Assembly: GCA_010093605.1 (NCBI GenBank)
Contig: MU004199.1
Location: 868,001-932,000, forward strand
Origin: Lophium mytilinum
Lineage: Eukaryota
Direction of reading: 5' to 3'
Length of the DNA stretch: 64,000 nt
A program made the position numbers and the translations under genes. Shown here in pieces: positions 15,749-27,184 of the stretch; within the stretch, counting starts at the first letter, position 1, and each line of letters starts with the position of its first letter. The notes under the pieces are model-generated. The model saw only the letters and a program-made list of their open reading frames with translations. It was not told the DNA's origin and did not search any database.

Positions 15749-17688
15749 ATGTCCACCAGTACCATCACAGAGCTTGAGACGCTTCTCGCAGAGCTGGGGC
15801 TGAAAACGCCCATTCCGCAATTTCCAGCCGCTGATGTGCTGAGAAAGCCTCTCGATATCGCCCGTTGCTACCTCGCTGATGTCTTCTCTGAGATTTCTGA
15901 ATCCGATGTCGAGAATGCATATCATTCAATTAATGGACCGAACAACATTCCTATGGGCGACTTAGCGGTTGTTCTGCCAAAGCTCGTCCACGGAGCCGAC
16001 GCCAACGTCTTAGCGTTTGAGCTGATGCAGAAGGTCTGTGGTTTCTCTCTTGCTCAAGTTCCCGAATATGGATAAAAGCTCACGTACCGTTGTAGTTCCC
16101 TGCAGAGTCTCCGCTCTTCCTTCTTCCATTCCCGGAAGGAGTGCATCTTTTGATCATGTTCAGGCCGCAGACGCTTCCGCGTCTCTTTCTTCCGTACATC
16201 AATGACCGCAAGGAATCGTATGGTCGAGATGCGGTACTTGGCCTCCTTGATCCTTCGTCTCCGGATTCTGGCCGTAAGAAACTGGTTATAGAGTTCTCAT
16301 CTCCCAATATAGCCAGTGAGTTTCAGGGCAAACATCTCCGGAGCACGATCCTCGGTGCATTTATATGCAATCTCTACGAGAGCATGGGTTGGGACGTTAC
16401 CAAACTCAACTACCTCGGTGACTGGGGGAAGCCGATCGGTCTGCTTGGAGTGGGGTGGGAGAAGTTTGGCTCGGAAGAGCTCTTTCAGGCCGACCCCGCC
16501 GGTCACCTGCTTGAGATCAACCACAAGATTAACGATTTATTCGTTCCCGAGCAAGTAGCCAGCAAGAAGGCTCGAGATGACAAGAAAGATTCGGCGGAGA
16601 TTGAGTCGCAAGGTCTGTTCGCGGAACGAAACGCGTTCTTCAAGAGAATGGAAGAGGGTGACGAGGCTGCACTTGCGTTCTGGAAGCGCGTTCGAGATAA
16701 TGGTATTCAGAACTATACTCGCTTCTACAATCGGCTGAATGTCAGCTTCGATGAATACTCTGGAGAGTCCCAAGTCAGTCCGGAGACGATGACCGAGGTC
16801 GAGCAGATCCTGAAGAGCAAAGACATCTGCGAGGAAAGTGGTGGAGCTTGGATCGTCGATCTGAAGAAGCATGGGGGAAGAGCTGGAGTGGCGATCATTC
16901 GGGATCGTGCTGGAAGCACTACTTACCTGCTGAGGGACCTCGCAGCTGTCTTGGAACGCCACAAGAAGTATGCGTTCGACAGCATGATCTACGTCGTCGC
17001 CAGTGATCATAATACCCACTTTTCGCGCCTTTTCAAGATACTGGAGCTCATGGATATGTCCGATCTGGCCAACAAGCTGCAGCATGTCTCTTTCAACGCG
17101 GCATCGCAGCTCTCAGAGAAAGTAGGCCATGGGGAATACACGCTGGATGGTATTCTAGACAAATGCCAGAGCGCAGTAGAGGAGTCCTTACAGGGGAATC
17201 CAGAAAGGGCTACTTTGCTTGAGGTCGCGAAAGGGACATCCGATCTCGGCGTCGCAGCACTCCTAGCTCAGGAGCTATCCGCGAGGAGGGCGAGCGACCA
17301 TGGATTTGACGTCTCCCGGATGACTTCTTTCGAGCCTGGCACTGGTCTGGACCTCCAGTATTGGTACGCAAGGGTGTGTGACAGCATCAAGATCCTGTCA
17401 AATGGGGCTAGTTCTTCCGATAATGACGTGGCTGCCCTAGAGGATGAGGATGAAGCAAATCTCCTTCGTTCCCTAGTGCAGTATCCGGAGGTCACTCACT
17501 TAGCGTACAAGACTTTGGAACCAGCTGGAGTAATGGTGTACCTTTTCAACATCACTGCGCAACTGTGCTCTTACTTTGAGGCTGGTCGAGACATCCCTAA
17601 ATCGGCGGACCTGCCTTTGTACGAAGCTACACGGGTTGTATTGGAGAGTGGACTAAAGCTGCTTGGGATCAAGCCGCTAGCCGGATGA
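15749..17688 (+). CDS. Arginyl-tRNA synthetase-like protein (class I aaRS paralog) with degenerate HIGH motif
   Basis: Two exons (intron about 16034-16095). ArgRS hallmarks EFSSPNIA, HLRSTILG, NYLGDWG, FDEYSGESQV, TYLLRDLAA, MIYVV, LQY and DALR-like helices. HIGH reads QGKH. Confidence 0.88.
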
Positions 17689-19876
17689 GCTCGCACCAGA
17701 TCTATAAGATCGGAACGCGCCGGTCTGGTGTAAAAGCCTGCTTGGTGGTAGTATTCATGCATGGAATACATGCTATAAGTTCCAGCTCGCTGCCCTGATG
17801 CTCGCTACTGGAAACTCGTCTGGAGGGTCATCTTATCCCCTTGGTTGGAAGCGTTCATCTTTGACGCGATTTTTCGTCTCATATTTACTCTGTTCTTGTT
17901 TTGCACCAACATTTCGTCCTATTGTGGCTCGCAAGGCCGTGCAACAGGGTTCACGCTGTGGGACAACCGATCAAGTTGACTATGATCTGAATGGTATGGT
18001 GTTCCGCCGCTCTTCATTCGTCACTGCGTGTACTTCATTCCTCTTTTTAGTCCATGAGTACGTCAGATATGCGCGTCTCACCTGATTGGTCGATCTTTCT
18101 CAGCCTAATGGCGCTATTCCAGCATAAAGTTCTCATTCCGGTGATAACGACATTAGTCTTTTTGCTCGTGCGAGACTTATTCATGGCCTAGAATATGAAC
18201 TCTATTGTTTCTATGCCAATGGCAGGATGTAGGGACTTTATCTGATTTTATGATGACTTCCTAGCGAAATTGGCAGCTCAATGCCGCTTCCCGAATGCAT
18301 CGACGTGTAATTCATACTCTACCAACTTCGAAATTCTGAAAGTGGGACAATGAGGTAACGTATATATGTCGGCGTGGTCTTAGACCAAGAAGGATCCCAG
18401 ATGCAGGTGGTAGGGGCTGAAACCTCCCGCCAATTGCAATCTCACCGCTCTGGCAGCCCTTTCAGGGGTAACATGCGAGGGCCCGCTTCCCCGTACGAAT
18501 GAATTGCCCTGCTTTCCATTTCGGTTGGGAGAGCAGCACTGAGCGGGCTGCTTCAATTTTTTACATTCGAATTTGTGCGATACGTGGTCCGGTAAGTCTC
18601 TGCCTATTTCATATTATAGCATTGCATTATCGTTACATCGTTGAGGATCAGAGCGCTTAGAACGCTTTTTTCAACGCTTAGAGTCCCTTACCACGTCCGG
18701 CACAACCTGAGTAGCGGCGCGTAATGGCATAGTTTGTGCGATAATGCGGGTCGCTGGACTAGGCAAATTCTCATACCTACCATTTGACTGGCCTAGAAAT
18801 CCCCTTGAAATGATAGCGGTGTGGCGCCACTTCCTCGCTATTGAATTATTCGGCCAAAAACCGTATATCTATCCTTCCGTTGTAGCTAGCTCCCTCCCTC
18901 ATTCCTCAACAAATACAATACGATCATTCCTCCAAACCGCTACCCAACCTTGCTCCCACAGCTAGCGACCGATCAAAGGCAGCAGTCATAACAGAGCTCA
19001 CAACAACGATAGACCAGAGCAATCTTGGATGGGACCCGTTTCGCTGTCCAAGACACCGGATTTCCTGCTCTTTAGGAAGGTGATGCGGTTGCAATCTGGG
19101 CTAACGACTATGGGCCAAGCATTCACCATCAGGGACATCGAATAACCAATGGCATCCAATCATCAGAGACGCATTGAATCAACATACTAGTCGGACTGTA
19201 ACCTCCTGTACGGTGTATACATCTCATCTCTAAAGCACCTCCCACTTAAAGACGTCCGACAAGGGCACACCCATCGTCAACGCACCACTCTCACAGCAAT
19301 GTAGAGAAAGCAAACGGTGACCATATTCAAGTTGTGTTCATTATAGGGTACACATCCACCCGTAGACAACGCCTTGGTGGATACCCCATTCACAATACCA
19401 CTTTAACTCTTCAGGCGAAGGGCATATTCGTGTTATAGAGTCTGGAAAGATACACATTCACATCTATACTCTATTGCCCTAGCAACTCATCTACCTTGGT
19501 CACTTTCACTGGTTGCAAGCTGATACTCTTAGTCTTAAATTAAGGATGATCAGTGGCGCTCTTTCCTCGCTATCGGCTTACTCAGCAAAAAGAACCAGTA
19601 TATTTCCTCTTCCTTTGCAGTTAGCTTCCTGCCTGACTATTCCTCCGAACCGTTGCTTTGCTCATCGGTGTAACGTTGTCACTGCATACAAAGTGGATTG
19701 ATATCTATAGCGGAAGCCAATTGTGGAACATCTTCGTCCTTACATTACGCCTGTTCTGCAGCCAGTCGTAAATCTTCACCTTGATCGGCACAGTGGCTGA
19801 GACTCACCTACACCCAGCTGAAGCAATATACTCAACCCATTTTCCCAACGGCAATTATGTTGGTGCAAAAGGTATC

Positions 19877-20341
19877 ATGTGCCCAAAAATGCAGTCTAGA
19901 TTATCTGATGTTGTGGGAGACCGCTACTCGGAGATTGCGGATATCCCGCGGACAAGGTCATTGGATCTTAAGCGATCTCAGCCCTGGTCAAATGGATCCT
20001 TCAGCTGCGTCGCCCACTCCTCGCCCGTCAACGCCCAACACAATTCAGTCGCCTTCTTTCCGCCAGGTTGGGAGCTGGTCAGTCCGCCTCACAGTCAACC
20101 CCATCAATCAATGGAGAATGCATGCTGACCGCCGGCTATTCTAGGCTAAGAAAAAGTACTCGTACATCTGGCAGTGCGTGAGTGGACGCAGCAAAAGCGA
20201 AGCGGCATCAATGAAGGCTAACGGGACACAATCCAGTGCGCTTGTGGGTGGACAGGCATCAACATAACCGCAGCAACGTGTCCCTCGTGTGGCACTGCTA
20301 GATGCGCATACTGCCAGACGACCAAAGTACAGGCACGATAG
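19877..20341 (+). CDS. Small Cys-rich putative double zinc-ribbon protein, copy A (3 exons; start uncertain)
   Basis: Exons ?19877-20077, 20145-20177 and 20237-20341, with GTCAGT/GTGAGT donors, GCTGAC/CTAAC branches and YAG acceptors. Product ends FFPPGWEL-AKKKYSYIWQC-CACGWTGINITAATCPSCGTARCAYCQTTKVQAR*. A paralog lies at 24451-24809. Confidence 0.8.
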
Positions 20342-20785
20342 GCGGAAGGAAAAAGGGATTGGTTGCAGGCGAGCACTGCGCCTGGTCTCTCGGTCGCCTC
20401 TCAAGATTCCTAGACTCTATCACGACGGCCAGCGCATCTGCAATACCAGTTGCCTTTTTTCCACACGCAATTGGGAGGCCTACGGAGACGATATACTGGT
20501 CAACGGGGGGAGGTCTGGAAATACAAAAGTATGGAGTCGCAGCGCACACCTGGGCTGTTGGAGTCTGGTTACGACGTTCTTCGTTTCTAGATGCAATTCA
20601 CGATTCATGACTCTTTTTTGACCTCAGAGCTCGCGATCTTCAGTGTTACTATCAAGTCATTTATTTCCACCTCAGGCCAGTGCCCCCATTCGCAAGTCCC
20701 AGTAGGCATGAATTGGTGCCGTGCTTGCCGCCTTTCCCGGATCTCCAGCGCGTTGAATTACTCCTATCTCCAGATCTGACGAATC

Positions 20786-23072
20786 ATGAGCGCTGCAAAG
20801 ATAAATTCTCCTGGGGACTTCTATGCCAAAGAATGGGACCGGAGGTTTTCCAAAGACCGGATTCCGAGAGAGAAAAGTTCATTCGTTGACGCCAAGAGAC
20901 GTGCGAATGCCGTTGGCGATGGTGTTGCAATCTTCTTACGCGACTCTGAGGGTGCAGTACCATCGTGCAAGTGGCGAGACGTGGAAAAATTCTGCCAAGA
21001 CTCCTGTCTAGATGATATCGAACGAGGACTAGGTATCGCGGGGATGCGACGGGCTGCTTGGATTGACGACCGGAGTCTGATTCCCCAAGCAAATATAATT
21101 CACAATAACAATACCGAAAACGTTGATAGAACGGCCGTGGATGACGTGACCGAGCCGAACGGCGGAACTATCAGAAAATGCCAGAACCCGTTAACGGCGA
21201 CTGCTGTTCTCCGACACTTGAAAGAACCGGTACAGAAACATCTACTACTTCTCATGATCCTAGCAATAAAATCCTAATCAAAAACCATTTAGCGATTCGA
21301 TCATACCGATCTACCTGACGCAGACAGACGACTGATGCAAGTCCCACATCTCGAAATCTAATCATACTTAACTGACTCAATGTACGGAAATAGTTATATA
21401 CCAAATTTAGATCCCCATTACACGCTTGCACTGGCAGAAACCGCACCTTTCCATCAAGTCAGAGCTCTGAGAGATGCTATCTGGAATCACCTAGCACTTG
21501 AAACCTCACTCCGAGTGAAGATGGCTGTAAGTGATTGAGGGAACATGGCCCTACATGGCACTATGATACTATAAGTTTCAGTAAATAGCTAACTAGAGTG
21601 TTCTTCGACCATGATATAGGGCTTCAAGGGCTACCCTGTTTTCCAAATGGAAATGCACATCCCCTTCTTTGCATTTCGAGAGTACCCGCCTTCCACAACA
21701 GATAAGTCAGAGGGAGAAGGGTGCAACAGGAATCTAAAAAGACAGTGGACCGACCTATCTTTCTTGAGCGTGCCAGCATCAAAATCAAAGCCTAAACCTG
21801 AGCCAAATTACGGCATATACAAATCACGATTCTCGCTTGTCATCTGTGGCTCTGAAAACCGGCGCTGGATTGGGTACGCTTTCGTGGACCAGCATATCGA
21901 TGACGAAGACCTAGAAGAAGAAGACTGTTCTTATGAGGAATTTCAAGAAGATCCAATTCTGTCTGATGGTTCGGATGCCAATCTCCCGATTTGGGACCCG
22001 AGAGAATACTTTCTCATGACACTCGAAATTCACGTGCGTAAGATTCTCGGCGAATGGGAGAATGCAGTGTATACTGTCAAAGGCAAAATCAACGAATATG
22101 TGAGCGTTCTTTCCAAAATCGCTGTTTCACCTTCTGTATGTTTAAGCTTTGCTGACGCTGGCAACAGCAATCTCGTCACGGCTCTATATGGTCGCACGAC
22201 CCTGCAGCTATGGAGCAAAATTCGACTGAAAACGTCAAAGAGATCTTTGAGTGGACTTTGAGAACAATGAGACTACTCAGCCGTGTTCTGGACGTCCTTT
22301 CCGCTACAGTGCAGGCCTGGGAAAGATTCAAGTGTCACAATGGAGACATTGGGTATTTCCGTGACTCCTCCACCGAGACCTCTCCATTCCCAAGGCAAAC
22401 AATACAACGATCCCTATGTGCTATCGATGGCAAATTTGAGGAGTTGACCTTTCTACAAGAGAAGTTAGTCGCATTGAAGGAAACCTGCAACAACTCAGCA
22501 GAAGCTGTAAGTTTGAACACATGTTTTGGTCTTCTCTTCTCCTATATCGCGATCCAAGTATTTTACTTACACAGCAACCTAGCTCAAACTACGTCTCACT
22601 GTGGAAAGCAGCGAAACGATGCAGCACACTGGGATTACTACCGACTTCACTGTTTTAGTAGGTCCAGCTGATTTGTTCATGCTACTATGAGAATATTGAC
22701 TCTTTGCAGGTGCTTTACCCTTTTGCGCTTGCAACAGCCTTTTTCGCAATGCCACAAGCTGCTATCCCCTTTACTCTCACTTTCAGATCCTTCGTTATAT
22801 CCGTCTTCGTTATTATGGCTATGATGCTTGCATTCAAGCTACTGTTCGTCGCTCTCAGTCGTATCCTGAGGTCCTGGTGGCGGAATGCAAACATCACCCC
22901 GGTCAAGAACCTCAGGCAGTGGCTCTTCTGGAAGAGGCGTGAGACCTCACCAGCTACTCCAAATAGTTTCACTAATCAACGTACTGGGGAATTTGGAGGA
23001 GACATTCTTGAAGGGGTGATCGAAACGACTACCTACGCAGGGGGCATTGAAATGCATCCAATTGTAGTCTGA
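20786..23072 (+). CDS. Multi-exon fungal CorA-like protein with two C-terminal TM helices, GMN motif absent
   Basis: ORFs 20786-21277, 21647-22261, 22210-22671 and 22704-23072 plus short exons (DLPDADRRLIYIPNLDP...ALAETA...LRDAIWNHL) join into one frame. Contains FQMEMHIPFFA, PIWDPREYFL, helical/coiled-coil segments and YPFALATAFFAMPQAAIPF followed by a second TM helix. Confidence 0.72.
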
Positions 23073-23149
23073 AGGACTCTTCTTATGGTCATGACTTCAA
23101 TTTTCATATTCTTATTTCTCTATCTGCATATAAAGCCTTGTAATTCCTA

Positions 23150-23848
23150 ATCCTCCCTTCATGTTGTTCTTGGGTACTAGTAACAGCACACCCCCCCTCT
23201 TATCTAATCTTCTAATTAGCTAGAACGGCTCGGATCTTCATCCAGAGCTCTATTCTCACGTGCATGATGCATCTGTGCCGTAGGCTTGACTGTACGGAAG
23301 GCCGTACGTAAGGCAAGGCTGTATAGCTTCTGCATTTCATCTAATTCCTGTAGTTGCTTATAGGCTATTGCATTGGTGCCTACATGCCTACATGCCTAGA
23401 ACAATGCCAGCACTGTTGAAACCTTATCTTATCACCGCTCCTCCGCATTGAGCCTGGGCTCTTCCATCGCCGCTGCCTGATTGATATACTCCATGTCCTC
23501 ATCATACGATGTAAACTAACAAACAAGCCCATCACGGCCAAGCTTCCCTTCCTGAGGAGGAGCGCAATCTTGCCACTGTACTTCCTTCTTCCGCGGTGCC
23601 TTATGATTTAAGCTAGACGGCCTGCCAGGCTTCTTACCCGTAGGTGCGCCTCTATGAGCTTGTATAGGTGAGGGCGTAGATGCGGGCGTAGATGCGGGCG
23701 TAGGCACGGGCGTAGATGGAGAAGTAGGTAGAGGATAAGGATGAGGATGTGATTGTTTGCGCCCACGCCGCATTTGGAGAGAGCATATAGAATTAGTGAG
23801 TGACTTGGACGAATGTATTGGAGGCTTCAGGGCACCTCTCCAAACCAA
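23150..23848 (-). pseudogene. Degraded ORF (possible RIP-mutated gene or transposon remnant)
   Basis: ORF 23516-23848 continues in the same frame past several TAG/TGA/TAA codons with protein-like text (FTSYDEDMEYINQAAAMEEPRLNAEER**DKVSTVLALF*ACRHVGTNAIAYKQLQELDEMQKLYSLALRTAFRTVK...). Contains a short GGGCGTAGATGC minisatellite at about 23672-23719. Confidence 0.45.
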
Positions 23849-24450
23849 GTGATGAAGTGACTGGGTAAGGGGGTGGGTTACGCGTAGAACGAAAAGGGAG
23901 TGTGTCTTTTGGAGCGCTCGACAAGTTTGTTTTGTCGAAAAACTCTAGTAATACGTAGATGATGCTCAATACTACTCGTACAATACTATATCGTTTCCAG
24001 CGGCATGCCCAATAGGTGCTTGGCTTTTGGCATGCCGTAAGTCTTGCATTTTGAAGCAGTATAGAAACTCTTCGACAGTCCTCAAAAGTCGTCAGTTGAC
24101 CAAGCGCAGCACGCTCCTCACTCGAATCCTCTTAGTAAGTAACAAAACGTAGCGAGTTCGGGAAATGGGATCAAATATTGATTCGGTCTGTTGTAGAAAG
24201 GTAATAGGCTTAGATAGTGACAGGAGAGGAGACATATACACAGCCGCTCCAAGCATTTGAAACGTAAGCTAAGATCATAACCAGCCCGCACTAGCTCGTT
24301 ATCCTTTCAAATGACCTCCCAGATGATGTGTACAATATAGGCAACTTTTTTAGTAGGAATGCGTTGGATGTCGTAATAGAACGTTGAGCATTCTTGGAAG
24401 CCGATGAGCAGGCGCAGCACGCTTTAACATTGGATCCCGCTTCCATCCAC

Positions 24451-24809
24451 CTATTGGACCTGGACTTTTGTTGTTTGGCAGTAGGCGCATCGAGCAGCGC
24501 CACAGGATGGACACGTTGCAGAGGATATGTTAATGCTGGCGCAACCGCAGGCACACTACAAGGCAACATGTTAGCCTCTTATTACATGCCTTCACAATGG
24601 CCAATCTGCTCACGCATTGCCAGATATACGAGTACTTCTTCTTAGCCTAGAAAGAAGGGCGGTGAGTACGCTATGTGATTGGATTTAGTATGAGGCGGAC
24701 TGACCAGCTCCCAAGGCGAAAAGAAAGAATCCAGGAGGGTCGGGAAGTTGGACGCCCGCGCGTCAGCGTCGTCGTTGCAGGGTTCTGGCTGGTAATTATT
24801 GGTCTTCAT
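24451..24809 (-). CDS. Small Cys-rich putative double zinc-ribbon protein, copy B (3 exons; start 24809 or 24878)
   Basis: Exons 24809-24705, 24646-24614 and 24555-24451. Product ends FFSPWEL-AKKKYSYIWQC-CACGCASINISSATCPSCGAARCAYCQTTKVQVQ*. Intron positions and phases match copy A. Confidence 0.8.
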
Positions 24810-27184
24810 AATGGCCTTAGGGCAAAAGAGTGTAAATTGATAATAGAAGACGCCTGTGAGAGTCCAATTCTCCTTCATGGCTTTCCAAACGCTTGACCTC
24901 AATTGCCAGACGGCAACGGCACAATCAGGCTATATATAACGAGTAAGAGACCTGCGGAGCAGACAAGCGATTGCGTACCATGGTACTTGGGGTATGTACG
25001 GAAAGCCATGTCTCGGTCCATTAGGGTGTTCGCGAGTTTGCTCTGGGCTGACTCGATGTCGAATTCTACGAATGAGCTCGTTTTCAGAATGCATAGACTA
25101 GGAAACGGAAGTACCTTTGTAACGCCGAGATGCTTCCAACTTCCGCGCACTGCATGCACACTCTGAAAGATAAAAATGTCTAGCTACGCTGATAGAGAGA
25201 TACGTTGAAGCATAGAACGCTTTCCGAATTCATTTGGCCCTGTAGTTGGTCCTGGAGGTTGGTGAGATGGAAACGTAGTTTTGGTTATGCATCACTAAAA
25301 ACCGCTCTCCCCGGGCTGAGGCAAGGAAGCCGCCACTTGTTGATATCAGGAGTGGCTCTTGCACCCGCCGCGAGAGAGCGTAGTCGGCCCAGTCATCCTG
25401 AAAAAGAGCGAGATTTAGCGGAAGGTTTGAATATCATGCCACGAGTCAACCGCGCCATTCCCCACGCCATGGATATTCAGAAACCGTACGAATTGCGGAG
25501 CTGAGTCCGTCGTCCTGGGCCACAAAGGTTACAAGCCGGGGCAGGGTTTGGGGTACCAACAACGGGACTGGCGTTAAATGGCGCGGGATGGTCCCAGGGC
25601 TCAGCCGAGAAAGATCCGCCATGCATAAGCTGGATGCAGGGCGCTACTGGGTGTCTATCGTTTGCACGACTTTTTGCTTTTCTCCGTTCAAGCTCCTCAA
25701 GCCTCCAGTCTCCCGCCCGCTTCTTGCCTGCATCTGCCTATCGGCTTACCGTCAACACGGCTCTAAATCCCAATTCCTTTCCAAAAGCGACGCGTGTACG
25801 CCTAGGCGATTGTACGAAATGCATGCCACGTGCATATATCCCAAACCACTTCTCAGGCATCGGCCTGCTCGCCTGCCTATACTGGATTAAGACGACCGAT
25901 CTGCTTTTACCGCATGCTAGCGTGCCTTTATCGTCTGTCCATATCATACACGACAAGGGTTTTAACGGAGCCAATCACCGCTGTCGCGCACAGAGCTTTA
26001 CGCCCCGAGCAGGGAACTGTACTTCGACATTTAATGACGGGACTCAGGTCTCACAATCGGCCGCAAGTACAGGACCTTCTCACGTCCGGTGACCTAGTGT
26101 GGAAACTGAGTCGACCCCTGTGAACCTCCTTTTCTAGGCTAATAATGAGCCTACTTGAAGATTTATTGGCCAGGCGGCTATTATTCCCCCCTGAAGGCGT
26201 CTGGGATTGTAACCCCATACGGTACTCTGTGGCTTGATTTTGACGCTAGATCACCGGACGTGGGAAGATGCTGTACTGTACTGTAGCCGTCTTACCATGG
26301 GCGTGGTTAGCGTGTAGGCAGCTGTAACGGCAGGACGGTAAATTCCGGCCTTGCAAGCTGATGAGAGAGATAACATGGACCAGGATAGCCTTCAGAAGGT
26401 CGGAAAGCCTTTTGTTACGCCTCATATATGAAATTCGCTAACCACAACATGCGGCCATAAGCTGTCTGTAGTCTGCCCGACACGAGAAAACGCCATTTGG
26501 TACTTGCACAACTACACCGCCACGTGAAAACATCATTTGGTATTTCCACAACGTGTACAGCGCAGGGCAATCCTCGTGGAGGGTCTGATACAGCGTCTTG
26601 ACACGTCCGGTGAACTAGCGTCGATTTGAAGCCACAGGTGGAATAGCTGGGATTAGAACGGAGGATGCCCATTTTCGGACTAAAAATTACCAAGGCTGAG
26701 CCAAATCTGCTAAAAGCACAGTACCCCGAGGCGTTACTTTCAAGACTATCCTGCTTTTGTGGTAGACTTTCGCAGCTTGGTTTCCGCGCTGGACCACCGG
26801 ACGTGTCTACGTACATGCTGTACATATCCTCCAAATCCTTGCATCGCGTCACATCACAACGTCGCATTACTTTCTCAACTTCCATAAGTACATACGTTTT
26901 GAGATTCGACCACAAGCAGCCCTAGCGCTAAACTTCCGGAGGAGCGTTGAAGAAACCTTATGACAGAGACGCGTCAGAATGTGTAGATACTTACTTCTTG
27001 GTCGCTAATTCTGCATCACCCCTTGTCGCTCTTCTACGTAACCCCCCCGTCTTGGTAACTCGGCGACTTTGTCACTTTACCTCTTTTTCAAGCTGGACAG
27101 GTCGCATGATGTCCCATTCCTCAGAATACATCAAGACACTCCAGGCCGTAGCCATCGAATACCATATATCACAACTTCTACTAT

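Follow-up and report, generated by a model that had tools for sequence, protein, structure and literature searches.

In Chi et al. 2023 (PMC10600005), the CorA protein of a type III-B CRISPR system with NrN is described as an immune effector that binds S-adenosylmethionine-AMP (SAM-AMP) and whose toxicity is lowered by a neighbouring gene. The HisRS-like domain of Gcn2, as described in PMC11363354, retains a synthetase fold, has lost its catalytic elements, is under selection, and acts as a regulatory sensor. Here, a locus comparable to both is described from a 64,000-nt stretch of contig MU004199.1 of Lophium mytilinum (positions 868,001–932,000), which is called the window throughout. The DNA is fungal, and its products have identical counterparts among the proteins deposited for this species (Dothideomycetes). 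The window contains a copy of a conserved, multicopy module—a gene for a Zn microprotein, followed by a gene for a CorA-fold membrane protein without the GMN motif and, often, by a degenerate paralog of arginyl-tRNA synthetase (ArgRS). The three genes are under selection, hold their order across fungal classes, and have each lost a hallmark of their kind, namely a Zn ligand, the GMN motif, and the ATP motifs, respectively.

By analogy, the module may work like the CRISPR CorA effector and the HisRS domain of Gcn2 while being a member of neither. It shares with the former a divergent CorA and dedicated neighbouring genes; however, the CRISPR system (PMC10600005) is prokaryotic and needs Cas10 and SAM-AMP, whereas the fungal module has a pseudosynthetase and a Zn microprotein as partners. 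Among 110 neighbouring open reading frames (ORFs) from 38 selected longer loci, no Cas10/Cmr, NrN, or lyase partner is present, and PADLOC matches none of seven proteins. Gcn2, according to PMC11363354, contains a class II HisRS fused to a kinase and is single copy, whereas the fungal ArgRS-like protein is a free-standing class I paralog, encoded by two exons within a multicopy cluster; the gene shows no fusion to an eIF2-alpha kinase. A search of open-licence papers and preprints (without supplements) returned no description of this three-gene combination. The composition of the module is apparently undescribed, which applies to the combination and not to the single genes.

Linkage and composition of the module

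A metagenome scan with the small gene yielded 65 loci; with one duplicate match dropped, grouping at 90% nucleotide identity leaves 50 lineages. A member of the CorA-fold family lies beside the small gene in 39 of the 65 loci. Counted by lineage, it is found downstream on the same strand in 29, in convergent orientation in two, and not at all in seven, and 12 lineages are too short, which leaves 38 informative ones. The gap from the small gene to the CorA-fold gene ranges from 367 to 2615 nt with a median of 642, and it is 1 kb or less in 24 of the 29 lineages. Where at least 3 kb of downstream DNA is available, the partner is present in 20 of 21 loci, compared with a chance of such a neighbour of ~3.5e-4 per locus, estimated from the copy number in this genome. 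A more sensitive search of 16 partner-less loci recovered only one further partner (L027; L-numbers are locus labels). Besides the window, in which KAF2489384.1 and KAF2489386.1 flank KAF2489385.1, adjacent accessions occur in Lepidopterella palustris (OCK76055.1/OCK76056.1, Dothideomycetes) and in Leptodontidium sp. 2 PMI_412 (KAH9203699.1/KAH9203700.1, Leotiomycetes). The pairs in Zopfia, Bisporella, and Phaeosphaeriaceae lie on different contigs and, the hit lists of deposited proteins being incomplete, neither support nor refute the linkage. The distances of small genes and partners covary (Mantel rho 0.56, p 0.0005, 28 pairs), as they should if the unit is passed on whole. All other flanking genes among the 110 ORFs vary from locus to locus, the ArgRS ORF excepted. 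Two small-gene/CorA-fold modules stand in tandem in L085 (2246–8338) and in L084, with the ArgRS-like gene after the second one in L084.

The CorA-fold gene of the window (20786–23072, plus strand; P0003 = KAF2489385.1) has seven exons and encodes a protein of 625 aa with two C-terminal helices. All six of its introns show up as joints in X1, the single run used, which was analysed as contigs. The RNA nature of the run is a guess, although the contigs do skip canonical introns, and they cannot show single molecules, nor were their depths used for ranking genes. One of these introns, at 21337–21393, is of the GC..AG type, and its joint is likewise found in X1. With Mg2+ channels of the CorA/Mrs2/Alr1 type (T. 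maritima CorA, PDB 4I0U, 8TMC), the protein shares the alpha/beta domain, the long stalk helix, and the two C-terminal helices. Foldseek gives 58 matches at E ≤ 0.001, the best being T. maritima CorA at E 1.2e-7, and the rows listed are all CorA, with TM-scores by query of just 0.22–0.30. It differs from the channels by ~10% identity, large N-terminal additions, and the missing GMN; none of the 17 partners that reach the column after the first transmembrane helix has this motif, and F-A-M-P takes its place in the window protein. The curated cut-off of PF01544 is not reached by any of 18 members (best E 0.086, in one of them). Between loci, the partners are 16–85% identical (median 33%). The genome contains four other loci of the family, at C12:967588-969190, C12:78374-80453, C19:861294-861821, and C8:988991-989434 (C-numbers are contig labels of this genome), comprising one kinase fusion, one gene with a long C-terminal region labelled C2H2, and two fragments. 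A further 19 PF01544 matches lie outside the family.

The ArgRS-like gene of the window is located upstream of the small gene at 15749–17688 on the plus strand, with a predicted intron at 16034–16095. It is the third copy in the genome, the other two lying on C13 with canonical motifs. Both domains of canonical ArgRS are recognized (PF00750, E 1.9e-63; PF05746, DALR, E 1e-14), whereas the HIGH motif, the upstream Lys, and the KMSKS-equivalent are degenerate or lost. Across 65 loci searched, nine of the 16 informative lineages carry an ArgRS-like gene on the same strand 0.9 to 1.1 kb after the CorA-fold gene. These linked copies are 50–70% identical with saturated synonymous divergence (dS), and they split from the canonical-motif copies at an ultrafast bootstrap (UFBoot) of 100. 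HIGH reads QGKH, HGKH, or QVKY in all six long linked copies, as opposed to HAGH and HEGH in the two copies on C13. In the alignment to yeast, the HIGH glycine (G161) and K156 are changed in all six; the GMSTR loop, the equivalent of KMSKS, is replaced by unrelated, variable residues; the C-terminal Met is gone; and Q375 is mostly His. We take these changed positions to be those of ATP and anticodon binding. By comparison, N153 and H162 are mostly kept, as are Y347 and an acidic residue at 351, which presumably form the arginine pocket. In the Atlas, a cluster of 81 proteins that resemble the CorA-fold protein bears the automatic name 'Arginyl-trna synthetase', perhaps because the two genes are neighbours in other genomes as well.

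The Zn microprotein and its two copies in the window

An earlier note on this DNA, made from the sequence alone, had described two hidden, convergent three-exon genes for Cys-rich microproteins that bracket the CorA-like gene. Neither is hidden, as both are already annotated as hypothetical proteins. Gene A (19889–20341, plus strand; KAF2489384.1 = P0008) encodes 108 aa as annotated and consists of exons 19889–20077, 20145–20177 (33 nt), and 20237–20341, separated by introns 20078–20144 and 20178–20236. Gene B (24451–24809, minus strand; KAF2489386.1 = P0010) encodes 80 aa as annotated, with exons 24809–24705, 24646–24614, and 24555–24451 and introns 24704–24647 and 24613–24556. Each of the four introns has GT..AG ends and lies in phase 0, and the deposited models have exactly the exon boundaries that had been proposed. 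Alternative ATGs exist at 19877 for A and at 24878 for B. In the X1 contigs, both introns of B are skipped at the predicted sites (joints 24705/24646 and 24614/24555). For A, the start of one contig coincides to the base with that of exon 3 (20237) and thereby hints, if weakly, at use of this acceptor; the contigs have no cover of 19411–20212, that is, of exons 1 and 2 and the A junctions, and missing cover is no evidence either way. A 49-nt GT..AG intron upstream of B on the minus strand (25066–25114, joint 25065/25115 in X1) is probably part of the 5' leader of this gene, with which it would share a putative transcript.

The inverted duplication (noted earlier at 20069–20341 and 24713–24451) is borne out by three pairs of arms—20215–20351/24441–24577, 20120–20182/24609–24671, and 20068–20106/24676–24714—and by a local alignment of 20068–20493 (plus strand) with 24714–24300 over 431 nt (67.5% identity, E 6e-46). 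The duplicated segment begins at the end of exon 1 and takes in ~150 nt of the 3' flank. Identity between A and B is highest in exon 2 (91%) and exon 3 (77%), followed by intron 1 (64%), the 3' flank (61%), and intron 2 (59%). The exons are thus more alike than the introns, as had been noted; yet, against a shuffled baseline of ~45%, the introns have diverged without being randomized. The three differences in exon 2 are all synonymous, as claimed before, and over 49 codons, there are 16 synonymous and eight nonsynonymous differences (NG86: nonsynonymous divergence, dN, 0.075; dS 1.24). Together with a median dN/dS of 0.20 for the small gene over 58 pairs with unsaturated dS, this supports the earlier view of A and B as genuine coding genes with three exons, on which purifying selection acts.

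A and B come out as sisters, at UFBoot 98, in the small-gene tree, which is built on 126 nt of 48 sequences and leaves the deep nodes unresolved. B is the later, local inverted duplicate and A the canonical upstream gene; B is an extra copy, still spliced and under selection, that has no downstream partner, and a third small-gene copy was not found in this genome. A bracket is also present in L034, and L050 has a convergent small-gene copy on a short contig. The two small genes of L034 belong to different subclades and are not sisters, so the bracket arose at least twice, as a by-product of copying, and an ancestral bracket is rejected. Hence, the bracketing does exist in the window, but the conserved feature is the small gene upstream of the CorA-fold gene. 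This arrangement and the third, ArgRS-like gene had escaped the earlier note.

The exon-3 search gave 26 deposited matches, of which 22 were aligned, leaving out P0009, P0012, and P0016 (spurious repeats) and P0026 (a long fusion). The pattern W-x-C-C-x-C-x11-C-P-x-C-x3-R-C-A-x-C is intact in 46 of 48 sequences; all Cys that had been listed for A and B are indeed kept, whereas the spacer after C-x-C measures 11 residues rather than the 10 first given. Intron 2, between W-x-C and C-x-C, sits at the same position in 45 of 46 lineages, and the exception (L043/L044) has lost it precisely, so that the frame reads through, which independently confirms the junction. A candidate intron 1 is seen in 35 of 49 lineages, and in 24 of these 35 it is preceded by an in-frame ATG. 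As a rule, exon 1 is open, but it is not conserved, and its frame shifts between close relatives; the N terminus is thus a variable tail, in line with the divergent N termini initially reported. These frameshifts had prompted the idea of a non-AUG start, which was set aside in view of the 24 in-frame ATGs. In exon 1 of A, an out-of-frame ATG (19992–20082) opens a Ser/Pro-rich frame that aligns with the N terminus of B; another N terminus could result if the frame has shifted between the two genes or if a weak donor at 20082 is used. L059, L063, L066, and L076 contain an additional micro-exon upstream of exon 2, which ends in I-W-x-x and resembles exon 2, hinting at exon duplication or alternative exons.

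The AlphaFold model of the small protein is confident over residues 40–80 (predicted local distance difference test, pLDDT, >90) with terminal strands at 39–45 and 73–79. Comparison of residues 38–70 places NZF/RanBP2-like fingers (Npl4, Vps36, Nup153) in the best rows (Z 3.9, root mean square deviation 2.2, 31 aligned), a weak likeness with Z at background level, and UniRef labels B as 'RanBP2-type'. The RanBP2/NZF finger has the spacing W-x-C-x2-C-x3-N-x6-C-x2-C; in contrast, the small protein has an 11-residue spacer, three more Cys, and Asn in only 27 of 48 sequences. Pfam reported nothing above cut-off for the small proteins, and Foldseek had no match at E ≤ 0.001. The best PDB sequence-profile match, GATOR2 MIOS (E 0.004), is only a weak likeness in Cys spacing, and a family link was rejected. 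Nor is the small protein a part of the CorA-fold protein that has split off (hhalign probability 0.6). A screen for viral relatives confirmed none of 91 pattern stretches.

The Cys frame is shared with His-type fungal proteins of the form W-x-C-C-x-C...C-P-x-C-x-H-x-x-C-x-x-C, which probably correspond to Pfam PF26652 Zn_ribbon_double (Atlas score 0.78, a lead only). In this genome, eight of 11 pattern matches belong to this related group with eight ligands, as against none in the control, and its 11 His-type loci show no CorA-fold or ArgRS match within 1.5 kb. The family of A and B differs by its 7-Cys domain without His, intact in the 46 sequences above, by the fixed R-C-A-Y-C, the T-T-K-V tail, the conserved introns, and the CorA linkage; eight ligands are assumed for the double ribbon from the His-type relatives. 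The His that completes the second site in them is kept in three of 48 sequences and lost in 45. With seven ligands, any second Zn site would lack one of its ligands, which a partner may supply. Of the two-Zn ribbon suggested at first, the ribbon-like fold is probable, and the second Zn is unproven. A and B are members of an uncharacterized microprotein family of Pezizomycotina, ordinary if taken singly. The eight small His-type ORFs of this genome (L113, L114, L116, L117, L118, L120, L121, and L122; W/Y-x-C-C-x-C...C-P-x-C-x-H-x-x-C-x-x-C) represent an uncharacterized microprotein superfamily. In P0026 (Bisporella, 725 aa), the small domain is predicted at the C terminus of an ankyrin-containing protein, which may be a fused gene model.

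A proposed mechanism and its rivals

When a tight, ordered, nonbiosynthetic gene cluster is retained from one fungal class to another, its genes usually work together, and the three genes very probably form such a unit. Several findings weigh against it. In seven lineages, the small gene has no CorA-fold gene within at least 1.5 kb, and L047 is without partner while its close relative L038 has one. The ArgRS-like gene is absent from seven of the 16 informative lineages (at least 1.3 kb of further DNA), L034 included. Looked at from the side of the CorA-fold gene, the evidence is thin and partly negative: within this one genome, the other four loci of the family stand apart from any small gene, and their scanned ORFs include no ArgRS domain. 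In addition, several deposited relatives of the CorA-fold protein stop short of the membrane helices. The covariation of distances is also expected under simple co-inheritance. The degenerate motifs, as read from the alignment, would not by themselves prove the ArgRS-like protein inactive. X1 joints over its gene are of the antisense type (CT..AC); its sense intron is absent from the X1 contigs, where missing cover is, again, no evidence. In detail, the minus-strand-type joints between 15185 and 18317 are 15949/16087 and 16724 or 16759/16927, as an antisense RNA with alternative splicing would produce.

From linkage, fold, and motif loss, a sensor–effector mechanism is tentatively proposed, which we regard as quite possible, short of probable. 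Herein, the ArgRS-like protein would have lost normal aminoacylation while still binding tRNA-Arg or arginine; alternatively, it might stand in for ArgRS as the decoy target of an attacker. In either role, it would signal to the CorA-fold protein, which would act as a gated pore or membrane effector and no longer as a Mg2+ importer. The basic Zn-ribbon microprotein would be its dedicated regulator, either keeping the CorA-fold protein inactive or linking it with the sensor. More specific, and rather doubtful, is the idea of a multicopy, three-gene surveillance system of filamentous ascomycetes, in which the catalytically degenerate ArgRS either senses tRNA-Arg or arginine or is a decoy for attacks on translation and sets off the CorA-derived membrane pore, with the 7-Cys microprotein as the check. 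If true, eukaryotes would have a counterpart to the CorA immune effectors of prokaryotes, its sensor being a synthetase decoy. The module would offer a testable function for the abundant unexplained CorA-like proteins of fungi and might point to a fungal pathway of translation surveillance or non-self defence.

The alternative that survives best, unlikely as it is, reads the same linkage data as a second-messenger module: the ArgRS-like protein, its ATP site rewired, would still adenylate, a nucleotide signal (Arg-AMP, diadenosine tetraphosphate, Ap4A, or similar) would gate the CorA-fold protein, much as SAM-AMP acts in type III CRISPR, and the microprotein would tune the system. The six long copies have all gained a Lys within HIGH while losing the upstream one, which could be a relocation, and the residues that we assume to form the amino-acid pocket are retained. 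Binding of an adenylate signal by CorA is described in PMC10600005. But the KMSKS-equivalent is lost too, and adenine is normally shut out when the HIGH glycine is replaced by a residue with a side chain. No degrading enzyme travels with the module among the 110 neighbouring ORFs, and the PADLOC result given above is negative.

Quite unlikely is a selfish or non-self-recognition cassette, with the CorA-fold protein as toxin, the microprotein as antidote, and the ArgRS-like protein as an optional accessory. Its multiple copies in varied neighbourhoods, tandem in L085 and bracketed in the window and L034, would fit, as would the fast divergence of the partners, extra copies of the B type as antidote dosage, and broken copies such as the fragment on C19 (861k) and the frameshifted ArgRS-like copy of L033. 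However, CorA-fold copies persist in the same genome without a partner, and X1 shows an intact, spliced transcript across the CorA-fold gene. Less probable again is that the genes have no functional tie and are neighbours by descent, copied together. The seven of 38 lineages with an unlinked small gene, the unlinked CorA-fold copies, and the close relationship of some metagenome lineages speak for it; yet, order and strand are kept across two classes, down to a partner identity of 16–33% and with changing outer flanks, and the ArgRS-like gene follows at an almost uniform distance.

The least probable reading is control in cis: expression of the CorA-fold gene would depend on a read-through transcript with A as its first cistron or upstream ORF, and the protein made from A would be of little importance. 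It draws on the short gaps and on one X1 contig that runs unbroken over 20237–23411, from exon 3 of A through the CorA-fold gene (a contig does not prove a single transcript), and is opposed by spacers that hold 2–50 ATGs and no element shared beyond close relatives, by the strong selection on the small protein, and by B, which stays selected and spliced without a downstream partner. According to PMC4503453, fungal polycistronic RNAs have a mean inter-ORF distance of 364 nt, which favours this reading, whereas the same paper reports no such units in Neurospora.

Noncoding features around the module

Rfam and ARAGORN gave no match in the window. Between the ArgRS-like gene and A lies a degenerate dispersed repeat (18817–19640) with nine further matches in the genome. 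The interval between the CorA-fold gene and gene B contains four degenerate 12-nt tandem units (23665–23724). Downstream of these, two copies of a ~210-bp element resembling a miniature inverted-repeat transposable element are found at 26066–26277 and 26589–26810. They have terminal inverted repeats and ~40 matches in the genome, and one of the copies encloses a CT..AC joint (26117/26226) in X1.

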